NCBI GenBank assembly: GCA_028701115.1
Contig: JAQVRJ010000001.1
Span: 1-59,524, forward strand
Direction of reading: 5' to 3'
DNA length: 59,524 nt
Origin: Clostridia bacterium
Lineage (GTDB): Bacteria; Bacillota; Clostridia; TANB77; SIG350
The notes beneath the pieces were generated by a model. That model had not been told where the DNA came from. It was given only the letters and a program-made list of their open reading frames with translations, and did no database searches. Position numbers and translations under genes: made by a program. Of the stretch, positions 2,378 through 47,868 are shown piece after piece. How positions within the stretch are numbered: position 1 is the first letter of the stretch; the number at the start of each line of letters is the position of its first letter.

Positions 2378-2773
2378 TCAATATTTTGTAATTTCTCTTT
2401 TTTTAGAGTATACATAAGTATTAGAGGATAAATAATATTTTATTGCATAAAAAACATATAAATGTATGTTGTCTATACGTGCAAAGATTATATTAAAAAG
2501 CAAGATAGGGAATGTAGTAAAGAATATGCCATATATTTTTATTGTTATTGAAATGTTAAGCTTATAAATTATGTAAACTATAGGAATACATATGCCTAAA
2601 GAAATAAATATAGTTATATAATTAAAAATTCCTAAGAATTTAGGCTGGACATCATAATTTTGGTATACTATTTTAGTATTATCTTTTTGGGTTATTTTAA
2701 TTACCTCCTTTTCCAATAGATTTAAAAATAGATGAAGATATGTTAGAATTTTTAGAAAAGTTAAAACCACCAA
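2378..2773 (-). CDS. small two-TM membrane protein, PrgI/VirB3-like (start uncertain)
   Basis: There are two hydrophobic helices after a short polar N-terminus, and the gene sits right after the VirB6-like gene. The ATG at 2773 overlaps the upstream gene by 77 nt. A GGAGG lies at the upstream stop, but only ATT/ATA codons follow it in frame. Confidence 0.4.
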   Translation of the reverse strand: MVVLTFLKILTYLHLFLNLLEKEVIKITQKDNTKIVYQNYDVQPKFLGIFNYITIFISLGICIPIVYIIYKLNISITIKIYGIFFTTFPILLFNIIFARIDNIHLYVFYAIKYYLSSNTYVYSKKREITKY

Positions 2774-3608
2774 TTATTTCTTGAATATATGAATTGAGCT
2801 TAAATAATAATAAAATACTACCAATTATTAAAAGTTTTGAATATGTAGTGTTTTCAAGACTTAAGATATGTGGAATATATAATACTATAATAATAAAGTT
2901 TTGTGTAATTAGTAATACAAAAAAGTATTTTAACCAGCTAAAAAAGTATTGTTGTAAATTATCTTGTAATAAGCAAATTATAAAAAAGGGCGAACATAAT
3001 ATAAGAACTTTTATAAGAATAAAACGAATAATATAAGATATTAAAAGAGATATAGAGCCAAAAGTAATTATAGATTTTATTATTCCGTCAATAGAAAATA
3101 TATTTGTTGTGTTGCTATTAGATATGTATGTATTTATATTATTAGCGAAGTTTAAAAAAGAAATTTTACTATTAAATAAGTATTCCCCTAATTGTAAAAG
3201 AAATTCTGTAATGAGATAATTAAAATTGATTAAAGATTCACAAATAAATAAACATGAATTTGCACATATAATAATAAAAATTGCTTTAAGAATATACAAC
3301 AATATGAATTCTGTTTCTTGGCTAGTGTAATATGAGCTAATTATTTTAATAACTTTATATATAAATATAAAGCCAACTAAAATGTTAATTAGTATTAGTA
3401 AATTAAAATTATCAGAAAAAAATATTTGCCTTATATTTTCATCTATAATATTATTGCTTGTCAAAATGACAATGTTATCTAAAAGATTGTATATAGTATT
3501 ATCTATGGATGAAAATAAAGTATTAAATATGTTTTGAACTATATCAGTTATAACTGATAGTAGTTGTTCGGTAGAGATTGAGTTATCGGTAGTTTCAGTG
3601 TTTTCCAT
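2697..3608 (-). CDS. polytopic membrane protein, VirB6/TrbL-like
   Basis: 303 aa. A polar N-terminal segment is followed by five or more hydrophobic helices. The gene sits between the VirB2-like and PrgI-like genes. Confidence 0.5.
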   Translation of the reverse strand: MENTETTDNSISTEQLLSVITDIVQNIFNTLFSSIDNTIYNLLDNIVILTSNNIIDENIRQIFFSDNFNLLILINILVGFIFIYKVIKIISSYYTSQETEFILLYILKAIFIIICANSCLFICESLINFNYLITEFLLQLGEYLFNSKISFLNFANNINTYISNSNTTNIFSIDGIIKSIITFGSISLLISYIIRFILIKVLILCSPFFIICLLQDNLQQYFFSWLKYFFVLLITQNFIIIVLYIPHILSLENTTYSKLLIIGSILLLFKLNSYIQEIIGGFNFSKNSNISSSIFKSIGKGGN

Positions 3609-3611
3609 ATA

Positions 3612-3920
3612 TTAACCTATTAAAGATTGTATTGCTTTTAGTATTAGATCAACAGCAAGTATAAAACCATATGAAAATAATGTTGTTCGTATAAGTTTTT
3701 TACCTTTCATTATTCTATCTTCATCACCAAAGCTAAACTTTGTTATAAATATCCCAGTACCGATAGCAACAGCTGCTGCAGGAGTTGCTAATTTTATCAT
3801 CCATTCAGTTATTTTTTTTAATGCTGAATTAAGTTTATTAATAATAGTTGGATCACCACAATAGGCAATAGTTGCAAATGAGATAATGAATATTGTAACT
3901 AAAATAAGTAAGAAAAACAT
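3612..3920 (-). CDS. TrbC/VirB2-like (or Maff2-like) small membrane protein
   Basis: 102 aa. A signal-like N-terminus (FATIAYC) is followed by two hydrophobic helices separated by a charged loop (KFSFGDEDRIMKGKK), which is the architecture of T4SS pilin subunits. Confidence 0.5.
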   Translation of the reverse strand: MFFLLILVTIFIISFATIAYCGDPTIINKLNSALKKITEWMIKLATPAAAVAIGTGIFITKFSFGDEDRIMKGKKLIRTTLFSYGFILAVDLILKAIQSLIG

Positions 3921-3941
3921 TTTAGATTTTTTAATATAATA

Positions 3942-5576
3942 TCACTCCTTTTCAAAATATGGATGAAGATTTAGTTTCATTGGTAATAGCATATTATTTC
4001 CTGAAGATAAATAGCAAATTGCTTGAAAAGTTTTTAAGTTTAATGAAAAGTCTTTTATATCAAATACATAGTCTGTACAAGTATATGTAGAGCGAGATTG
4101 TGAAATATTAGACTTTTTTGAACGCATAATATTTAAAAGATAGTTATAATTAGTTTCTTGAGCATTTTCACTTACATTTTTACTTATTTTAATTTTTTCT
4201 TCTTTCCCAAATAGTTTTTGAGCTTGTTCGATAGTGTATATATCATCAGTTCTTAAAAATATTTTATTAATACAACTTTGGGTTATTATATTCAACTGCT
4301 GTTCATTTCCTAATGTATTTAAAAGTGAAGAATAGCTTTGAGTAGATATAATATTTATGCATTTAAATTCTCTACTTAAAGATAAAAAGTTAGCATCATT
4401 GCTAGTTATATATTCTTGGTATTCATCTGATAAAAATAAAGATGGTGATGTAATAGGTTGTTTTCTTTTTAATACTTCATATTGAAATTCAAGTTTTAAA
4501 TATGTAGCTATAATTTTAGTAAGGTTTTGGTATTCGCCAATTGGAATATTAAGAATTAGAAAAGTATTATCTGTGAAGATATCTTCAAAACTAAATGTAA
4601 AAGAGTTATCTTTAGATGGCGAGAATGTATTACAAATATCTTCATCATTTGTAATAGTAGAAGTTAATCTAGAAATTTCAGATAGAATTATAGATTGAAT
4701 TCTTGAATCAAGATTTTCATATTCGTTTTGAAAATATGAAAGTATAGAATTTAAATCATATTGCATACTATGTGTAAGTTTGTTACTAAGAAATAAGGTT
4801 TTAACATAATGCATTTTTTCAAGTATATATTGTTTTGATGATATAATTTTGTGCAATTCAGTAAAGTTAACATATCCATTATTATATAATCGTATAAGTT
4901 TTATTGATTCTGTAAGCATTTGTCCTGCTTTATCAAACCAATATGTATCAGTATTTTTTGTATTTGAAAAAAGTTTTAGAATTGTTATTAGTCTGTCAGA
5001 TAATATATATGGTTTTAGTAAAGGTCTATTTAATGGATTATATGTATATTTACCAGCAACTTCAATTACTATGATATGATGTTTGCAATTCATAGTATTA
5101 ATGGTATTAAACATATTACCTTTAACATCTAGTATTAAGCCAGACATATTATCTATTTTTAATAATTGATTTAGAAAAGGAAAAATAGTTGAAGATGTTT
5201 TTCCAGAACCAATAGAACCTGTTATAAGAATATTTTGGTATAAAGCTACTAATGGAAGATATATTTTATTATTTTCATTATTTGTACCAATAAATAAGCC
5301 ACTTGTGTTACCAGTATTTTTTTGGTTTAATGAAATATTTTTTAAATTTAGCGAGCGATATATAACAATGGATATTATTATATACATTACATTTGTTGTA
5401 AATGGGAAAATAGTTTTTATACATAATAAGATAAAATCATAATTCAGGGGTAATAAAGATAATTCGGAAAAATTAATATTTGCAGAATAGACAGATGAAA
5501 ACGCTTTCAAAAGAATATATGTATGCAATAAAGGATTAAAAACTATTATTAGTAAAAATATTAGTATTTTTTTCAT
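3942..5576 (-). CDS. VirD4/TraG/TraD-family type IV coupling protein (ATPase)
   Basis: Two N-terminal TM helices, Walker A GSIGSGKT and a Walker B-like LFLSDEYQEY. T4CP-like blocks are present (YWFDKAGQML, ISTQSYSSL). The SD is GAAGGTGA. Confidence 0.7.
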   Translation of the reverse strand: MKKILIFLLIIVFNPLLHTYILLKAFSSVYSANINFSELSLLPLNYDFILLCIKTIFPFTTNVMYIIISIVIYRSLNLKNISLNQKNTGNTSGLFIGTNNENNKIYLPLVALYQNILITGSIGSGKTSSTIFPFLNQLLKIDNMSGLILDVKGNMFNTINTMNCKHHIIVIEVAGKYTYNPLNRPLLKPYILSDRLITILKLFSNTKNTDTYWFDKAGQMLTESIKLIRLYNNGYVNFTELHKIISSKQYILEKMHYVKTLFLSNKLTHSMQYDLNSILSYFQNEYENLDSRIQSIILSEISRLTSTITNDEDICNTFSPSKDNSFTFSFEDIFTDNTFLILNIPIGEYQNLTKIIATYLKLEFQYEVLKRKQPITSPSLFLSDEYQEYITSNDANFLSLSREFKCINIISTQSYSSLLNTLGNEQQLNIITQSCINKIFLRTDDIYTIEQAQKLFGKEEKIKISKNVSENAQETNYNYLLNIMRSKKSNISQSRSTYTCTDYVFDIKDFSLNLKTFQAICYLSSGNNMLLPMKLNLHPYFEKE

Positions 5577-5827
5577 AAATCACCTTCTAGAATATTTTTT
5601 AGTTTTGAACCTTGTTTTTCAAGTAAAATATAAGTTGATAAAATATCATAGATAAAAATTAATGAGACAACTATACTAAGAACTGTAAAACAAAACATAA
5701 ATATAAACATACTTAATGAATCAAGAAAAAAGGGGATAATAAGAAATAACATTGAATGAAAAGTAAAGATAAAGATTTTAATAAATATGAGCTGCACCTC
5801 CTTCCATATTTTACCATAGTATATCAT
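5573..5827 (-). CDS. small hydrophobic membrane protein, first gene of the T4SS-like module
   Basis: 84 aa with 2-3 predicted helices. It has a 4-nt ATGA overlap with the VirD4-like gene. No clear SD. Confidence 0.4.
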   Translation of the reverse strand: MIYYGKIWKEVQLIFIKIFIFTFHSMLFLIIPFFLDSLSMFIFMFCFTVLSIVVSLIFIYDILSTYILLEKQGSKLKNILEGDL

Positions 5828-22086: not shown

Positions 22087-24240
22087 ATGAAAATAATATT
22101 AGCATTATTTTTAATAATATTTATGGTTGTTATTATTAGATTAATTTTTGTTCAAGTTATAAATGGAGATTATTATAAACAAAAAGCTTATCAGCAGCAA
22201 ACAAATGATACATTAATTAGTGCTAATAGAGGTACTATATATGATATAAATAATCAAGAACTTGCAATAAGTGCATCTGTTGAAACAATAGTTGTTAATC
22301 CTCCTCAAATAAAAACTGATGAGGCTAGACAAAAAATAGCAAAATATTTTAGTGATAATTATTCTTTAGATTATGATACTTTGTTAGCTACTGTTAGTAA
22401 AAAAACACAATCTTCTTTAGTTATAATGAAAAAAGTAGGAAAAGAAGTAACTGATGAAGTAAGAAAATGGATATCTGAAGAAAAGATAAAAGGAATTTCT
22501 TTTATTGAAGATGTTAAAAGATATTATCCTTATGGGAGTTTAGCATCACATATATTGGGCTTTTGTGGAACGGATAATCAAGGACTTTATGGAATAGAAT
22601 TAAAATATGAAAATTATTTAAAAGGAGTTCCTGGAAGAGTTGTTACAACAAAAGATGCGAATAGTAATGATTTGCCTCTTGAAAGTGAAAGATATATAAA
22701 TTCTGAAGATGGAAACAATATCGTGCTTACTATAGATGCAACAATTCAGCATATTACAGAGAATTATTTAAGCCAAGCAATTGAAGAATATAATTGTTTA
22801 AGTGGGGGAACTGCAATAGTAATGAGACCAAGTACAGGTGAAATACTTGCAATGAGTTCTCAACCGGATTATAATTTAAATGATCCATTTACACCAACAG
22901 ATGAAGATGTGTTAAAGGTGTGGGATAATTTGTCTACAGAAGAGAGGGTAAAAATTAGAAATGAAATGTGGAGAAATACAGTAATTAGTTCTACATATGA
23001 ACCAGGTTCTACATTTAAATTATTAACAGCTGCAATGGCTGTTGAAGAAAAAGCTGTTGATACAGATAAAGTTATTTATACAGCAACTGGTGTAATAAGA
23101 GTTGGAGGATGGCCAATACATTGTTGGAGATCATACAATCCACATGGAGCTCAAACATTAGCACAGGGCTTACAAAATTCTTGTAATCCATTATTTGTAT
23201 ATGTTGGTTCGAAAATAGGAACCACTGATTTTTATAAATATCTTCGTTCTTTTGGATTAATGGAAAGAACAGGAATAGATTTGCCAAGTGAATCAACAAG
23301 TACATTTTGGGAAGAGAAATCTGTAGTGCCTGCTGATTTAGCAGTTATGTCATTTGGCCAAAGATTTGAAATAACTCCATTACAATTAATAACAGCTATT
23401 AGTGCACTTGCAAATGATGGTACATTAATGAAACCAATGATTGTAAAAAGGATAACCGATAGTAATGGTAATATTGTAACTGAATATGAGCCAACTGAAG
23501 TAAGACAAGCTGTATCAAAAGAAACAGCAGATAAATTATTAGAATATGCTGAATCAGTAGTTTCATTGGGAACTGGAAAAAGAGCACAAATTGTTGGATA
23601 TAAAATAGGTGGTAAGACAGGTACTGCTGAACAAGGTACAAATGATGATCATTATGTAGCATCTTTTGTAGGAATAGCTCCAGCTTATAATCCAGAGTTT
23701 ATTGTATTAGTAACATTAAAGGATCCGGGTGATAAAAATAATAGGCAAGGTGGAGTTTTAGGTGCTACTACAGCTAAAAAAATAATGAGTGATATATTAA
23801 GTTATTTGGAAATACCTATGGATTATGATATTGATGCACAAGAAACTAATGGAATAAAAGTTCCAGATGTAAGAACAAAAACAATTACAGAAGGAATGAA
23901 ATTATTAAAAACAGCAGGATTTAATGTTGAAATAGATTTTGATGGAGATAAGAATGCTACATCTATTTCTGATCAATTACCAGTACCGGGTACATTATTA
24001 AAGAAAGGTTCAATTATTAAATTATATGCAGCAGACAATGATGTTAGAGTTTCAGTAGAAGTTCCATCAGTAATAGGAAAAACTGCAGCAGAAGCAGAAG
24101 CCCTATTGAAAAAAGTTGGATTAAATATTAAAATAAGTGGTACAGGAAAAGTTGTTACACAAGATCCACCTTCTGGAACAAATATAGAAGAAGGAACAGT
24201 AATAAGAGTTGAGATGGATAATTTAACAGAGTTACATTAA
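22087..24240 (+). CDS. class B penicillin-binding protein (FtsI/PBP2B/SpoVD type) with two C-terminal PASTA domains
   Basis: STFK, SCN and KTGTA motifs plus two PASTA-like repeats at the C-terminus. The start is uncertain, because a strong AAGGGGGGG SD lies ~35 nt upstream of the ATG. Confidence 0.85.
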   Translation: MKIILALFLIIFMVVIIRLIFVQVINGDYYKQKAYQQQTNDTLISANRGTIYDINNQELAISASVETIVVNPPQIKTDEARQKIAKYFSDNYSLDYDTLLATVSKKTQSSLVIMKKVGKEVTDEVRKWISEEKIKGISFIEDVKRYYPYGSLASHILGFCGTDNQGLYGIELKYENYLKGVPGRVVTTKDANSNDLPLESERYINSEDGNNIVLTIDATIQHITENYLSQAIEEYNCLSGGTAIVMRPSTGEILAMSSQPDYNLNDPFTPTDEDVLKVWDNLSTEERVKIRNEMWRNTVISSTYEPGSTFKLLTAAMAVEEKAVDTDKVIYTATGVIRVGGWPIHCWRSYNPHGAQTLAQGLQNSCNPLFVYVGSKIGTTDFYKYLRSFGLMERTGIDLPSESTSTFWEEKSVVPADLAVMSFGQRFEITPLQLITAISALANDGTLMKPMIVKRITDSNGNIVTEYEPTEVRQAVSKETADKLLEYAESVVSLGTGKRAQIVGYKIGGKTGTAEQGTNDDHYVASFVGIAPAYNPEFIVLVTLKDPGDKNNRQGGVLGATTAKKIMSDILSYLEIPMDYDIDAQETNGIKVPDVRTKTITEGMKLLKTAGFNVEIDFDGDKNATSISDQLPVPGTLLKKGSIIKLYAADNDVRVSVEVPSVIGKTAAEAEALLKKVGLNIKISGTGKVVTQDPPSGTNIEEGTVIRVEMDNLTELH

Positions 24241-43721: not shown

Positions 43722-44252
43722 ATGGGTATATTAGATGATTTCGGTAAAGTTGTTTCAGATACATATAAATCTGCAACAAAAACATCTGGAAAGATTATTG
43801 AAGAAGGAAAATTGAAATTATTAATAATGGATAATGAATCTGCTATGAAAGAAATATATCAATCAATAGGTAAAGAATATTGTGAAACATATTTCAAAGG
43901 TGAATTATTAAATAATGATAAATTTCAAAATGAATTTGATGAATTAAAAAGAATGCAATTAGAAAATAGTCAAGCACAAGAAAGAATACTTGAATTAAAG
44001 AGTGTAAGAAAATGTACAAATTGCGATAAAGAAATAGATTTGAATAGTACATTTTGTCATTATTGTGGAACTAAACAACCTGATTATGTTCCTACTAAAC
44101 AAGATAATGAAGAAGAAAATATTGCAGATGTAAAGATTGAAGCTGAATCAGTTGAAGAGGTAATCGTTTCGGAAATACAATGCAAAAATTGTAACGCAAA
44201 TATTAAATCTAGTGATGATTTCTGTCCAAATTGTGGAGCTAAAATAGAATAA
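43722..44252 (+). CDS. double zinc-ribbon protein
   Basis: CTNC..CHYCG and CKNC..CPNCG follow a coiled-coil N-terminal half. Confidence 0.55.
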   Translation: MGILDDFGKVVSDTYKSATKTSGKIIEEGKLKLLIMDNESAMKEIYQSIGKEYCETYFKGELLNNDKFQNEFDELKRMQLENSQAQERILELKSVRKCTNCDKEIDLNSTFCHYCGTKQPDYVPTKQDNEEENIADVKIEAESVEEVIVSEIQCKNCNANIKSSDDFCPNCGAKIE

Positions 44253-44354
44253 TATAGTTATAATGTCAATAATATATATGGGGTGCCATATGTATTATTT
44301 TTTATCTTTGTGGCTGGAATATAGCCATTAATTAATGCTATTTCAGTAGTTAGG

Positions 44355-44383
44355 TTGCTAAAAATTTAATTTTATTGTATAAT
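44355..44383 (+). promoter_or_regulatory. promoter of array gene 1
   Basis: TTGCTA-N17-TATAAT. Confidence 0.55.
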
Positions 44384-44405
44384 AATAAAGTAATAGGAAT
44401 TTATT

Positions 44406-44879
44406 ATGAAAGAATTTGATCCTTCAAATTTAGCTCAGAGACATGTCTTATGTAAAGATAATACTAAGATTCAAAATGTTCCTGATGATTGCGGAGAAAA
44501 CTGTTTGTCTACTGGTATGATTTATCATATGGAAGATTTAATAGTTAATAATGACCTTACATTAGTTCAATTAAAAGAATTGCCTAAATTATGGTTTTAT
44601 TCAACGCGTTTTGCCGAAGTTGAGTATTATGAAAATTCTAGTGATTTTGATATTCGTGATACTAGAATGCGACATGTTGTTTGTGTTAATAATCAAGACA
44701 TAAATTGGTCTTTAAATGGTAATGCATCACAGCATTTGAAAGTAGGAGAAATCTATCATGCTTTGGGGATTGAAGTTCACGGATTCCATACAAGAGTTAG
44801 TTTACTTGAATTTCCTAAGTTGCAGTTCAATTCAATTAATTTTTCAGAAATTAGCATTTCTGAAGATGAAGAGTTCTAA
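44406..44879 (+). CDS. array paralog 1: uncharacterised two-module protein (internal duplication)
   Basis: 157 aa. Both halves carry RH..C, G.IYH and F.S..F.E motifs. It is paralogous to the next three genes. Confidence 0.8.
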   Translation: MKEFDPSNLAQRHVLCKDNTKIQNVPDDCGENCLSTGMIYHMEDLIVNNDLTLVQLKELPKLWFYSTRFAEVEYYENSSDFDIRDTRMRHVVCVNNQDINWSLNGNASQHLKVGEIYHALGIEVHGFHTRVSLLEFPKLQFNSINFSEISISEDEEF

Positions 44880-44915
44880 AAAAACATATCTTTTTTGATA
44901 TGTAATTTTTTTTTG
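44878..44915 (+). terminator. terminator of array gene 1
   Basis: acatatc-tttttt-gatatgt hairpin, then a T-run. Confidence 0.75.
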
Positions 44916-44994
44916 AAAAATTAAAATATATAGTACTATATAATCTGGATAAATAGTGAATTAATATAGAAATTAGATTATATATTTGCTAATT
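44916..44994 (+). repeat. internally deleted rnpB relic (spacer 1)
   Basis: attaaaatatatag matches the rnpB -10/+1 region. 44928-44994 aligns without gaps to the rnpB 3' end (47117-47183) with 50 of 67 identities by hand count. Confidence 0.7.
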
Positions 44995-45022
44995 TGCATA
45001 AAATCTATATTTGTTGTATAAT
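44994..45022 (+). promoter_or_regulatory. promoter of array gene 2
   Basis: TTGCAT-N17-TATAAT. Confidence 0.6.
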
Positions 45023-45045
45023 TATTATGTAAGTGAAATTATATT

Positions 45046-45519
45046 ATGAAGGATTTAGATTATTTAAATTCTAAATTAAGACATTTACTTTGCGTAGATG
45101 ATTCTAACGCTAAAGTTGGTGTTGATGATAAAGGAGAAATTAATTTAATGGCTGGTATGGTTTATCATTTGCAAGCTCTAAAAGTTTATGATAACTATAC
45201 ATTAGTTCAATTAAATGAATTTCCTGAATTGTGGTTTAATTCAATGCGCTTTACAGAAGTAGAATATTCGAAAGATTTTAGTGATTTCCATATTTTTGAT
45301 TCTAGAATGCGACACGTTGTTTGTATTAATAATGAAGATATTTATTGGTCTTTCAACGATAATGCATCAAAGTATTTGAAAGTAGGATGGATCTATCATG
45401 TATCGGAAGTCGAAGTTCATGATTGGCATACGAGAATTCGTTTGCTTGAATTCTCTGGTTTGCAGTTTCAATCAACACATTTTTCAGAAATTATTTTTCG
45501 TAGGGAAGCTATATGCTAA
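45046..45519 (+). CDS. array paralog 2: uncharacterised two-module protein
   Basis: 157 aa with the same motif pattern in both halves. Confidence 0.8.
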   Translation: MKDLDYLNSKLRHLLCVDDSNAKVGVDDKGEINLMAGMVYHLQALKVYDNYTLVQLNEFPELWFNSMRFTEVEYSKDFSDFHIFDSRMRHVVCINNEDIYWSFNDNASKYLKVGWIYHVSEVEVHDWHTRIRLLEFSGLQFQSTHFSEIIFRREAIC

Positions 45520-45554
45520 CACAACATATCTTTTTGATATGTTGTGTTTTTTTG
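45519..45554 (+). terminator. terminator of array gene 2
   Basis: acaacatatc-ttttt-gatatgttgt hairpin, then a T-run. Confidence 0.75.
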
Positions 45555-45638
45555 AAATAAATTCAAAATGCATAGTAATATATAATTTAAATAAATAATA
45601 AACTAATAGTTAATCTGTCTTATTGATTATTTGCTAAT
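45551..45638 (+). repeat. internally deleted rnpB relic (spacer 2)
   Basis: aattcaaaatgcat matches the rnpB promoter spacer. 45574-45638 aligns to the rnpB 3' end at about three quarters identity with one small indel. Confidence 0.65.
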
Positions 45639-45667
45639 TTGCATAAAATATAATTTTATAGTATAAT
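45639..45667 (+). promoter_or_regulatory. promoter of array gene 3
   Basis: TTGCAT-N17-TATAAT. Confidence 0.6.
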
Positions 45668-45690
45668 TATAATATTAGTAGGAAATTATT

Positions 45691-46176
45691 ATGAAAAAAG
45701 TGAATTTATTATTTAATTCTGAACCAAGACTTGTGTTTTGCGTTGACACTACTGAGGCATTAGATGGTCTTAATGATACTGGACATATCAATTTAATTCC
45801 TGGCATATTTTATCATTTGGATGCTGTAAAAAAAGTTGTAGAAAATGACAAGATTTATTTAGAAGTTGCATTGAAAGAACTCGAAGACGCTTTTTTTAAT
45901 GTAAATCGTTTCGTCGAAGTTGAATATGAAAAAAGGTTTGGTGATTTTGATATTCGTAATCCTAGAATGAGGCATATTGCTTGTGTTAATAATGATGACT
46001 TCATATTTGGTTGCAAAGATAATGCATCAAAGTATTTGAAAAGAGGGAAAATTTATCATGTGTTAGAAGTCCATATTGATATACAAGGCATATATGTTCT
46101 ATTGCATGAATTCCCTAATTTGGAGTTTAATGCAGGACATTTTTCTGAGATTGTTCCCGTTGTTAATGAATGCTAA
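45691..46176 (+). CDS. array paralog 3: uncharacterised two-module protein (most divergent)
   Basis: 161 aa. The first module has RL instead of RH. The other motifs are kept. Confidence 0.8.
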   Translation: MKKVNLLFNSEPRLVFCVDTTEALDGLNDTGHINLIPGIFYHLDAVKKVVENDKIYLEVALKELEDAFFNVNRFVEVEYEKRFGDFDIRNPRMRHIACVNNDDFIFGCKDNASKYLKRGKIYHVLEVHIDIQGIYVLLHEFPNLEFNAGHFSEIVPVVNEC

Positions 46177-46208
46177 AAAACATATCTTTTTTGATATGTA
46201 TTTTTTAT
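46176..46208 (+). terminator. terminator of array gene 3
   Basis: acatatc-tttttt-gatatgt hairpin, then a T-run. Confidence 0.75.
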
Positions 46209-46260
46209 TGACAACAATTCCAAAATGTATAGTAATAGAAATTAGCTTATGGATTTGCTA
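46208..46260 (+). repeat. internally deleted rnpB relic (spacer 3, largest deletion)
   Basis: ttgacaacaattccaaaatgtat matches the rnpB promoter ttgacaataattctaaaatgcat. gaaattagcttatggatttgcta matches the rnpB end gaacccggcttatagatttgcta. Confidence 0.6.
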
Positions 46261-46261
46261 T

Positions 46262-46290
46262 TTGCATAAAATCTAAATTTACTGTATAAT
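46262..46290 (+). promoter_or_regulatory. promoter of array gene 4
   Basis: TTGCAT-N17-TATAAT. Confidence 0.6.
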
Positions 46291-46312
46291 TACTAATCAG
46301 TAGGAATTTATT

Positions 46313-46783
46313 ATGAAGGAAATGGATTTATTTAATTCTAAACCAAGACATGTATTCTGTGTTGACGATACTGAGGCAGAAGATAGTCTTAATGATTATG
46401 GAGAACACAAATTAATTGCTGGTAAGATTTATCATTTGAAAGCTTTAAAAATGGATAATGGTAATCCAGTAGTTAAATTGAATGAATTTTCTGACATGTT
46501 GTTTAATTCAACGCGTTTTGCAGAAATTCAATATTCTGAAGGTTCTAGTGATTTTCATATTATGGATCCTAGCATAAGGCATGTTGCCTGTATTAACAAC
46601 CACGACATGAGTTGGCTTTTCAAAGATAATGCATCAAAGCATTTAAGAATAGGAAAAATTTATCATATGTCTGAGGTTGAAATTTGTGATCGGTATGCAT
46701 TAGTCCGGTTATTCGACATACCTAAATTACAGTTTAATTCAATGCATTTTTCAGAACTTAGAATTTTTAAAAATTATGCATAA
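46313..46783 (+). CDS. array paralog 4: uncharacterised two-module protein
   Basis: 156 aa with the same motif pattern in both halves. Confidence 0.8.
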   Translation: MKEMDLFNSKPRHVFCVDDTEAEDSLNDYGEHKLIAGKIYHLKALKMDNGNPVVKLNEFSDMLFNSTRFAEIQYSEGSSDFHIMDPSIRHVACINNHDMSWLFKDNASKHLRIGKIYHMSEVEICDRYALVRLFDIPKLQFNSMHFSELRIFKNYA

Positions 46784-46785
46784 TA

Positions 46786-46816
46786 AAAACATATCTTTTT
46801 TGATATGTGTTTTTTA
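46786..46816 (+). terminator. terminator of array gene 4
   Basis: acatatc-tttttt-gatatgt hairpin, then a T-run. Confidence 0.75.
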
Positions 46817-46845
46817 TTGACAATAATTCTAAAATGCATTAAAAT
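46817..46845 (+). promoter_or_regulatory. rnpB promoter
   Basis: TTGACA (46817-46822)-N17-TAAAAT (46840-46845), about 10 nt before the predicted P1 5' strand. Confidence 0.65.
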
Positions 46846-46854
46846 ATATATATA

Positions 46855-47180
46855 GTAAATCAGATGATCGTATGCGAAAGCATGAGGAAAGTCCGGGCAC
46901 CATAGGGCGGGGATGCTGGATAACGTCCAGTAAAGGTGACTTTAAGGAAAGTGCAACAGAAAATTACCGCATTACTTTGTAATGTAAGGGTGAAAAAGTG
47001 AGGTAAGAGCTTACTAGTAATATGGTGACATATTATTTTGTGTAAACCCCATTCGGTGCAACACCAAAAATAAATATATATAACGGCCCGTTATGTTTAG
47101 GTAGGTGGCTTGAATTATATAGCAATATATAATCTAGATAAATGATCGTCTAATACAGAACCCGGCTTATAGATTTGCTA
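46855..47180 (+). ncRNA. rnpB: RNase P RNA, bacterial type A
   Basis: GAGGAAAGTCCGGGC (P4 5') and ACAGAACCCGGCTTA (P4 3') are present. So are AAGGGTGAAA..GGTAAGAGC and GTAAACCCC..GGTGCAA blocks. P1 pairs gtaaatc with gatttgc, and P2 pairs agatgatcgt with atgatcgtct. Confidence 0.92.
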
Positions 47181-47186
47181 AATATG

Positions 47187-47250: not shown

Positions 47251-47490
47251 TTATATGTTTTTTAAAACATTTTTAATTAAGTTTTCATCTTCAATAATTT
47301 CAAATTTTGCTCCAAACATATTATTATATTTTTTATCTTTTAAAAGAATCATTTTAGGATCATTTGGAATGGTATCAATTATATATTCTGATGCAAGAAT
47401 ATAATTATTTGATTTATATGGGATGATGGATAATATGCAAAAATCTATATTATCTATATTTAATATTTTTCCAACATTATAATTTTCCAT
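47251..47490 (-). CDS. small hypothetical protein
   Basis: 79-aa ORF, 9 nt after the upstream ORF. It resembles DUF1292-type small acidic proteins only weakly. Confidence 0.35.
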   Translation of the reverse strand: MENYNVGKILNIDNIDFCILSIIPYKSNNYILASEYIIDTIPNDPKMILLKDKKYNNMFGAKFEIIEDENLIKNVLKNI

Positions 47491-47499
47491 TATGTCTCC

Positions 47500-47868
47500 T
47501 TATTTTAAAAATTCTTTAAAATTATTTTGTATATATGAATAATCTATTTTTAAATCTTTAGTATTGCCAATTTCTTTTGCAATACTGTTGAATTTAAACA
47601 TATAATCGGTACCCGGCACACCAGTAATATTTTCAAGTAGATGTGAAATGCTACTGTTGTTTTGCATATTACAAAAAGGGAATGTTTTAGAAATATTATT
47701 TATTGAGCAACATGCTGAAGATATAACAGCTGAATTATTAAATTCTTTTTTTGATATATTTGCAAAAAATGGCACAAAAAAGAATGATGAATTAGAATTT
47801 TGTTTTATTTCTGCGCCAGATCTTGCTATATAATTAGATAATAATTCTATATCATTACTTACTTTCAT
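47500..47868 (-). CDS. hypothetical protein
   Basis: 122-aa ORF preceded by an AGGGGGAATAT SD. No motif recognised. Confidence 0.4.
   Translation of the reverse strand: MKVSNDIELLSNYIARSGAEIKQNSNSSFFFVPFFANISKKEFNNSAVISSACCSINNISKTFPFCNMQNNSSISHLLENITGVPGTDYMFKFNSIAKEIGNTKDLKIDYSYIQNNFKEFLK

Follow-up and report, generated by a model that had tools for sequence, protein, structure and literature searches.

A tandem array of genes with doubled PF27001/Trna.2-like modules between core genes of a Clostridia genome

Layout of the locus

The analysed stretch, referred to below as the window, comprises 59,524 bp (26.4% GC) of contig JAQVRJ010000001.1 from a Clostridia bacterium. It contains a tandem array of four related genes that ends immediately upstream of rnpB. 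An earlier reading made from the DNA alone (the original prediction) had described four same-strand open reading frames (ORFs) with a period of approximately 620-645 bp. The positions were exact, and start-to-start distances were 640, 645 and 622 bp. In the following, w1 to w4 designate copies 1 to 4 of the window, and L1 to L3 the copies of a sister lineage with three genes.

44406-44879, plus strand: copy 1 (w1), 157 amino acids (aa), two PF27001/Trna.2-like modules (approximately aa 1-78 and 79-157)
45046-45519, plus strand: copy 2 (w2), 157 aa, two modules
45691-46176, plus strand: copy 3 (w3), 161 aa, two modules
46313-46783, plus strand: copy 4 (w4), 156 aa, two modules, rnpB-proximal
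46852-47185, plus strand: rnpB, bacterial RNase P RNA class A (281.9 bits)

Pairwise identity among w1-w4 was 42-54% aa, and no further copy of the array gene was found in the window by tblastn. N-terminal and C-terminal halves aligned with 28-36% identity over approximately 70 residues (blastp E 1e-9 to 1e-17, small test set). All 14 modules of the window and the sister lineage aligned cleanly, and a profile of phage proteins (see below) detected both halves, in agreement with the earlier view that each protein consists of two copies of a module of about 75 aa. The NCBI-sourced product for copy 1 has only 124 aa and matches profile positions 35-155. This gene call is N-terminally truncated, since the 157-aa ORF is collinear with its paralogs from end to end and is preceded by a conserved promoter and Shine-Dalgarno sequence. 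The array had been located between gpsA and rnpB, which holds for the rnpB side; on the gpsA side, a double zinc-ribbon gene of 176 aa (43722-44252) intervenes.

Family identity of the module

No significant match for w1-w4 was obtained in a local copy of Pfam-A predating PF27001, in NCBIfam or in PADLOC. A match to DHCW_cupin (E 0.002, 18 bits versus a cut-off of 70) was dismissed. Among the libraries scanned, the closest match was phrog_8472 of PHROGs, a family of unknown function, which was weak for the array proteins (E 3e-4) and reached 1e-5 to 1e-6 for single-module relatives. When 1.84 billion cluster representatives were searched exhaustively with HMMER and a four-protein profile, 163 matches at E <= 1e-3 were obtained. 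Two-module close relatives formed 3 clusters only, all of the same clade. The remainder were mostly single-module proteins of 65-100 aa with the motif L-x-V-G-x2-Y-T-V ... V-H-S-W-H-T-x-V-x-L-x-E-F-P-x3-F-N-S-V-x-F.

For the reverse test, a hidden Markov model (HMM) was built from 20 phage-type proteins, many of them labelled PF27001, without any window sequence (Z = 1.8e9). Full-sequence E values were 4e-31 (w1), 2e-36 (w2), 8e-17 (w3) and 5e-31 (w4). Module by module, E was 5e-9 to 5e-19 for the C-terminal and 1e-10 to 8e-6 for the N-terminal modules, except for the N-terminal half of w3, which was not significant on its own with this phage-only HMM. Alignment of the window family to the phage modules with hhalign gave 99.7% probability (E 5e-26). 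Many relatives bear the precomputed label PF27001.1, and gene tables call PF27001 'Phage_T4_Y07B'.

A six-frame ORF scan of phage T4 with the general module HMM gave a marginal match to trna.2 only (E 0.03). With a profile of the 'NGY...A-x-KYL' subgroup, trna.2 was the sole significant T4 ORF (E 7e-6). It is located at 72628-72915 of the T4 record (72.6 kb; 22628-22915 of the fetched locus L098). T4 31.1, to which the T4 record gives the name 'SH3 beta-barrel fold-containing protein', was tried as well and did not match the module HMM. We provisionally take Y07B to be Trna.2 (UniProt P13324), from the HMM match and from the map-based 'Y07' naming of UniProt, which agrees with the position of trna.2. 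The assignment of the array module to PF27001 'Phage_T4_Y07B', traced to T4 Trna.2, is well supported by these profile comparisons. The original prediction of an unassignable family without a family match is refuted by the phage-only HMM, the hhalign result and the PF27001 labels; profile searches with module and full proteins do lead to a family, which is itself uncharacterised.

Core residues R11, C15, L33, G36, Y39, L55, E57, F63-N-S, F68 and E70 are kept in 14 of 14 modules with conservative exceptions only. Only the C-terminal modules of w1, w2 and L1 retain the HSWHT beta-hairpin of the phage proteins (T 91%, W 66%). Hairpin positions 47-51 differ in all other modules, and the hairpin is replaced in six of the eight window modules. 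Close homologues were scarce: a word-index search with w4 found only the 97% ortholog of the sister lineage, and scans with the family alignment returned nothing from species genomes, nothing from IMG/VR and one locus from JGI metagenomes, identical to L001 (a three-copy locus).

Spacers and origin of the array

Each spacer within the array is built in the same order: a terminator comes first, then a stretch 77-87% identical to the rnpB promoter region (46785-46851), and lastly some 60-70 nt from the rnpB 3' end in decayed form. The following elements were recognized.

44880-44942, plus strand: terminator and copy of the rnpB promoter region, spacer 1-2
44921-44992, plus strand: decayed rnpB 3' end, spacer 1-2, 75% identical over 72 nt (ungapped) to 47110-47181
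45572-45628, plus strand: decayed rnpB 3' end, spacer 2-3, 75% identical over 57 nt to 47119-47175
ending at 46242, plus strand: copy of the rnpB promoter region, 87% identical, after the copy-3 hairpin
46245-46260, plus strand: rnpB 3'-end vestige, spacer 3-4, 16 nt, 15/16 identical to 47165-47180

In blastn, the remnant of spacer 1-2 had E 3e-12 when the array was searched and 1e-11 for the whole window; that of spacer 2-3 had E 7e-9 and 2e-8 (whole window). The 16-nt vestige is non-significant alone (E ~0.1-0.3) and is positioned as the remnants in the other spacers. A spacer of the sister lineage also contains an rnpB remnant (68 nt at 82%). The sequence ATTTGCTAA closes the rnpB remnant and runs straight into the -35 box of the cassette.

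Internally deleted rnpB copies upstream of the intact gene, accompanied by promoter copies, point to unequal crossing-over of a unit composed of array gene and rnpB. Site-specific insertion at an RNA gene was considered and rejected, as it would leave 3' fragments downstream, whereas the remnants found here are upstream of intact rnpB. No integrase was found within +/-10 kb, and integron-like mobile cassettes are not supported. The earlier description of self-contained cassettes is thus correct in that every gene has its own signals. It does not extend to mobile cassettes, since the spacers are decayed rnpB copies left by duplication in situ. The spacers show that tandem duplication in situ, by way of repeats derived from rnpB, gave rise to the array.

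Upstream of cassette 1, positions 44253-44350 display a gapped, non-significant likeness to rnpB, for example GTGGCTGGAATATAGCCAT versus 47105-47126. A remnant at this site is not claimed, as the match is gapped with a BLAST E of 0.03 or worse. If real, it would imply an ancestral rnpB-gene-rnpB arrangement.

G+C content at third codon positions (GC3) is 0.20-0.23 in the four array genes. They form the sole such contiguous block, and nearly all other window genes have 0.06-0.16. Codon choice differs likewise between the array and the rest of the window (ATA, 24% vs 61% of Ile codons; GAC, 20% vs 2% of Asp codons). Expression-driven codon bias was rejected as the cause of the raised GC3 because groES and groEL have GC3 of only 0.07 and 0.10. 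The raised GC3 is therefore read as a signal of foreign origin.

Promoters and terminators

Promoter-like elements upstream of the array genes were assigned by consensus scan and by conservation in seven cassettes (four of the window, three of the sister lineage); the site 5' of rnpB was assigned by consensus scan. Hairpins followed by T-runs were located 3' of each gene.

44355-44383, plus strand: promoter-like element of cassette 1, TTGCTA-17-TATAAT
44993-45022, plus strand: promoter-like element of cassette 2, TTTGCA-18-TATAAT or equally TTGCAT-17-TATAAT
45638-45667, plus strand: promoter-like element of cassette 3
46261-46290, plus strand: promoter-like element of cassette 4
46817-46845, plus strand: promoter-like site immediately 5' of rnpB, TTGACA-17-TAAAAT
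44884-44914, plus strand: terminator-like hairpin and T-run after copy 1, ACATATC-T6-GATATGT
45518-45555, plus strand: terminator after copy 2, 13-bp stem, -17 kcal/mol, z -5.6
46180-46206, plus strand: terminator-like hairpin after copy 3
46789-46815, plus strand: terminator-like hairpin after copy 4

Every array gene is preceded by ATTTGCTAATTTGCATAAAAT-N-TTGTATAAT and then by an AGGA Shine-Dalgarno sequence approximately 8 nt ahead of the ATG. The consensus scan detected 34 promoter sites versus 29.3 +/- 5.5 in shuffled sequences, which is not above chance in AT-rich DNA. Promoter calls are supported instead by upstream conservation: the seven cassettes of both lineages had a mean column identity of 81% across 83 upstream nt, and the -35, -10 and Shine-Dalgarno columns were invariant or nearly so. 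The site at 46817-46845 was taken as the rnpB promoter and as the source of the promoter copies in the spacers.

The terminator-like element, an A-run, ACATATC-T6-GATATGT and a T-run, is near-invariant in seven of seven cassettes. A strict terminator scan was passed by the copy-2 hairpin only. The hairpins of copies 1, 3 and 4 have weak 7-bp stems with 2 G-C pairs and folding z scores of -1.9 to -2.8. Across the seven cassettes, promoters, Shine-Dalgarno sequences and terminators are conserved better than the coding sequence. The expectation of a promoter and a hairpin for each gene is hence borne out at the level of conserved promoter-like and terminator-like elements. Four separate transcription units are plausible, and the conserved signals suggest independent, strong expression of the array genes.

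The -35 regions of cassettes 2-4 overlap a direct repeat, ATTTGC-TA-ATTTGC-AT (44978-45000, 45625-45645 and 46249-46268), which is one base shorter ahead of cassette 4. Its first unit, ATTTGCTAA, forms the last bases of the rnpB-3' remnant, and cassette 1 shows a single, degenerate unit only (GGTTGCTAA, 44351-44365). The repeat could be an operator.

Copy-number variation and selection

The four-copy arrangement was present on at least 8 contigs from several samples (among them loci L101-L106). In a sister population, likewise on at least 8 contigs (among them loci L001, L003, L004 and L109), three copies occupy the same site; flanking DNA is ~93% identical and gpsA 97% identical in aa sequence. 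Both variants co-occur in JGI 3300014203 and ENA ERZ27250894. Copy number at the gpsA-rnpB junction, which had been proposed for a survey of related genomes, is thus variable between two related populations. All seven ORFs are intact across both lineages. Orthologs compared as follows, where dN and dS are nonsynonymous and synonymous divergence.

w4 and L3: 97% aa identity, dN 0.011, dN/dS 0.05
w3 and L2: 86% aa identity, dN 0.070, dN/dS 0.63
w1 and L1: 61% aa identity, dN 0.225, dN/dS 0.66
gpsA (control): 97% aa identity, dN 0.012, dN/dS 0.05

There is no counterpart of w2 in the three-copy lineage. L1 was also considered as a recombinant of w1 and w2. It is uniformly nearer to w1 (~80% vs 72% nt identity) and hence no recent hybrid. 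From these values the rnpB-proximal w4, which is under strong purifying selection, looks like the constrained founder, and the distal copies look like fast-evolving derivatives, w1 changing the fastest of all.

Occurrence of the module in phages and genomes

The distribution of the module was determined with a 12-sequence alignment of the VHSWHTK subgroup. In IMG/VR, 100 of 113 pattern matches were confirmed as relatives, some on contigs of 190-220 kb. The same query gave 5 loci among the genomes of 185,579 species (one genome each). Among isolate phages, tblastn detected the module in T4-like cyanomyoviruses and in large Bacillus, Pseudomonas and Acinetobacter phages, where the annotation is always 'hypothetical protein'. 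Of 85 fetched loci that matched the HMM (IMG/VR plus the 5 genome loci), 83 carried the module gene as a single copy. The domain is accordingly read as overwhelmingly phage-borne and rare in cellular genomes, and together with GC3 this distribution suggests a transfer from phage to host.

The closest relatives lie in same-strand runs of small ORFs, typical of phage early or accessory regions. Genes in these contexts include YopX, PDDEXK_1, DNA polymerase III subunits, methyltransferases, RtcB, Tad8 and NrdD. In four proteins the module is fused to FHA domains, and it also occurs fused to a Spo0A_C DNA-binding domain (E 6e-32). These fusions suggest that the module behaves as a portable interaction domain and not as an enzyme.

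On two phage contigs of 96-99 kb (L110, 5162-7207; L112, 4146-7210), an RtcB RNA ligase gene precedes the PF27001 gene by 0.65-1.65 kb. This RtcB neighbourhood was seen in a single phage group. The L112 neighbourhood also holds a gene of the Tad8 anti-defence family and two YopX genes. The recurrence of a tRNA-related neighbourhood (RtcB on these contigs, the tRNA cluster in T4, rnpB in the window) may be coincidence or a lead.

The one experimental result encountered is a pull-down in which wild-type DRT1, compared with a reverse-transcriptase-dead form, enriched only two T4 proteins, one of them Trna.2 (PMC13275509). The enrichment was not followed up by the authors of that study, who judged Trna.2, within a collection of 23 phages, to be conserved only in the closest relatives of T4 (PMC13275509). 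The profiles used here place it in a far larger family that includes phages of cyanobacteria, Bacillus, Pseudomonas and Clostridia.

Protein character and predicted fold

The array proteins are cytoplasmic and acidic (isoelectric point 4.85-6.1). No signal peptide or transmembrane segment was detected, as the original prediction had stated: the maximum 19-residue Kyte-Doolittle mean stays below 1.0 in all four. A first AlphaFold2 run with 4 sequences was poor (predicted local distance difference test, pLDDT, 62) and was replaced by a run with 99 aligned sequences. The latter gave pLDDT 87.8 and a predicted template modelling score of 0.77 for two consecutive barrels of 5-6 strands each. The top Foldseek entries from the Protein Data Bank (PDB) were all SH3, bacterial SH3b repeats, tandem Tudor (53BP1, UHRF1) or KOW domains, and since these matches are non-significant, the designation 'SH3-like' refers to fold class and not to a specific homologue. 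In BFVD, single-module matches were uncharacterised phage proteins (Synechococcus phages S-SKS1 and S-CAM7; Erwinia phage Cronus). A PDB sequence search with the module profile was empty. We read the model as two SH3-like small-barrel modules with no characterised close homologue; structure prediction thus provided a confident two-barrel model and no significant structural match. The fold class, the domain fusions and the few conserved polar residues (E57 and N64/S65 only) argue for a non-enzymatic binding role.

Gene neighbourhood

Genes within +/-10 kb of the array encode housekeeping-type Pfam domains or have no match. No toxin, nuclease, secretion or defence gene was found in this range. 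PADLOC gave no match for the four array proteins, the zinc-ribbon neighbour or two small ORFs past rnpB. The earlier remark that no toxin, nuclease or secretion gene is adjacent therefore extends to +/-10 kb.

The two small ORFs are on the minus strand (47251-47490, 79 aa; 47500-47868, 122 aa), between rnpB and a gene for an RluD-like pseudouridine synthase. A pair of the same sizes occupies the corresponding position in the three-copy lineage. Neither ORF had a match in Pfam or PADLOC.

Near the start of the window, a gene for a TraG/TrwB-like type IV coupling protein is located at 3945-5576, minus strand (TrwB_AAD_bind, E 2e-8; TraG-D_C, E 6e-6). Together with unannotatable neighbours it occupies a minus-strand region (2697-5827) that adjoins dnaD/dnaB-type and dnaI-like genes (376-2325). 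This region may be the remnant of a conjugative element. The DnaB_2/DnaD-type and DnaI-like genes, along with rubrerythrin, suggest that the host is an anaerobic member of the Bacillota.

Interpretation

With a probability of roughly 0.6, we interpret the array genes as domesticated, phage-derived, non-enzymatic binding proteins that possibly act in phage-host conflict. The part of this explanation that concerns identity and origin is held with high confidence. A phage gene would have been captured, its module doubled and the gene then amplified in place; the spacers show this last step directly. Several rounds of unequal crossing-over, with repeats derived from rnpB as substrate, would have produced three copies in one population and four in its sister. 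The module would serve as a protein-binding adaptor, which in phages resides among early or accessory genes, like host-takeover and anti-defence factors. In the host, strongly expressed two-module versions would bind the same kind of partner bivalently. The core function would reside in the conserved copy next to rnpB, and the fast-evolving distal copies, most divergent at the HSWHT hairpin, would sample new specificities.

A mechanism by conflict, in which the proteins act as decoy, competitor or sensor, is tentatively suggested by the accessory-region habitat in phages, the turnover pattern and the lead from the DRT1 pull-down. The narrower idea that a domesticated, doubled host-takeover domain in a diversifying array constitutes a new anti-phage decoy or sensor, which binds or competes with phage versions or their target, seems rather unlikely. 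A tie to tRNA or RNase P biology is a second possibility beside it. The decoy or binding-protein family envisaged by the original prediction fits the SH3-like non-enzymatic module, the phage origin, the diversifying paralogs and the change in copy number.

Several points weigh against the interpretation as domesticated phage-derived binders. Its functional part is drawn from context. The direction of transfer is based on distribution and GC3, not on phylogeny. The adjacent genes include none for defence or anti-defence, and PADLOC was empty. Values of dN/dS below 1, as in the distal copies, would be expected under relaxed constraint no less than under diversifying selection, and two sequences per ortholog do not tell these apart. 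The best Foldseek match in the PDB had E 0.047, with none at or below 1e-3. The PF27001 label is precomputed for the exact w2 protein, flagged as faint, and for none of w1, w3 and w4.

A housekeeping adaptor, for example a binder of RNA polymerase, the ribosome or a kinase substrate, could have expanded into lineage-specific paralogs from an ancient SH3-like domain shared with phages. The constraint on w4, which equals that on gpsA (dN/dS 0.05), the core genes all around, the apparently strong and constitutive promoters and the FHA and Spo0A_C fusions, which point to signalling or transcription, would suit such a protein. It is nevertheless unlikely: among ~15 billion proteins, the two-module family was found in just two closely related populations, phages account for the overwhelming majority of module occurrences, the array departs from the genome in GC3, and copy number and sequence change fast. 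The foreign GC3 and the narrow distribution, with a high dN/dS in three of the four copies, would also be expected of a functionless relic, neutral leftovers of a decayed phage insertion kept open by chance. Seven intact ORFs in two lineages, core-motif residues kept in 14 of 14 modules, a dN/dS of 0.05 for w4 and signals (promoters, Shine-Dalgarno sequences, terminators) better conserved than the coding sequence make this highly improbable.

A function linked to RNA or tRNA, by which the module would bind nucleic acid or a factor of tRNA processing or repair and the adjacency to rnpB would be meaningful, draws on trna.2 directly adjoining the T4 tRNA cluster, on the RtcB gene upstream of the module gene in two large phage contigs, on the array abutting rnpB and on co-purification of Trna.2 with DRT1 only when DRT1 forms a DNA adduct (PMC13275509). 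The two contigs count as one observation, since they are related phages (RtcB ~59% identical), and the adjacency to rnpB is explained by the duplication history. A tRNA gene was present within the fetched flanks in only 4 of 88 phage loci, and homologues of RtcB, Rnl and PseT were not found in an ORF set of phage loci that covered 80 IMG/VR loci, the 5 genome loci and L007. On these two results a tRNA or RNA-repair link was rejected as a general feature of the phage loci. The array proteins are moreover acidic, and we consider this function very unlikely for them. An immunity, antitoxin or anti-defence array, each copy neutralising a cognate toxin or defence effector encoded elsewhere, would resemble the locus in its tandem, divergent, small, cytoplasmic, apparently individually expressed and copy-number-variable genes. 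The lack of a toxin, nuclease, secretion or defence gene within +/-10 kb, of any Imm or antitoxin match for the window proteins in Pfam and NCBIfam, and the rnpB-derived spacers, unlike those of polymorphic-toxin loci, render it scarcely credible; the earlier analogy to immunity-protein arrays is accordingly not supported.

Comparison with known systems

We know of no function for any PF27001/Trna.2-like protein. The domain is widespread in large lytic phages (T4-like cyanophages, Bacillus, Pseudomonas and Acinetobacter phages). That a host carries it in duplicated, diversifying form and under purifying selection indicates a benefit large enough for a cell to retain the domain. The array copies would represent natural specificity variants with which the partner of the domain could be sought. 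Should the decoy or sensor reading be true, the function of a widespread phage domain would become tractable. In practice, the host is uncultured, and the locus gives no clue to the partner. The way in which a neighbouring RNA gene can give rise to a tandem array is cleanly documented here. Judged from sequence, the locus makes a neat case of gene evolution and may offer a way into a widespread phage domain, with no surprising mechanism yet.

The immunity arrays of polymorphic toxins are similar in that small, cytoplasmic, divergent paralogs are arranged in tandem and vary in copy number. They differ from the present array, which has no toxin, Imm match or secretion system and arose from a duplicated rnpB-containing unit.

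Tandem SH3, Tudor and KOW modules (53BP1 and UHRF1; autolysin SH3b repeats; Spt5 KOW6-7) are non-enzymatic binders of ligands or proteins. The predicted model resembles them in its two consecutive small barrels of 5-6 strands. The likeness is one of fold class only (best E 0.047; single-domain TM-scores of 0.5-0.68 relative to the target).

With PF27001, T4 Trna.2 (P13324) and phrog_8472, the array proteins share a homologous, acidic module of ~70 aa and the motif L-x2-G-x2-Y ... (V-H-S-W-H-T) ... L-x-E-F-P-x3-F-N-S-x-F-x-E. Whereas the phage members have a single module (65-100 aa) and a single gene copy, the array proteins are doubled, their gene is amplified 3-4x amid the core genes of a bacterial chromosome, every copy has a promoter and a terminator, and the hairpin is diversified. 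The family itself was already known and its fold class is common; what appears to be new is the doubled module and its chromosomal array.

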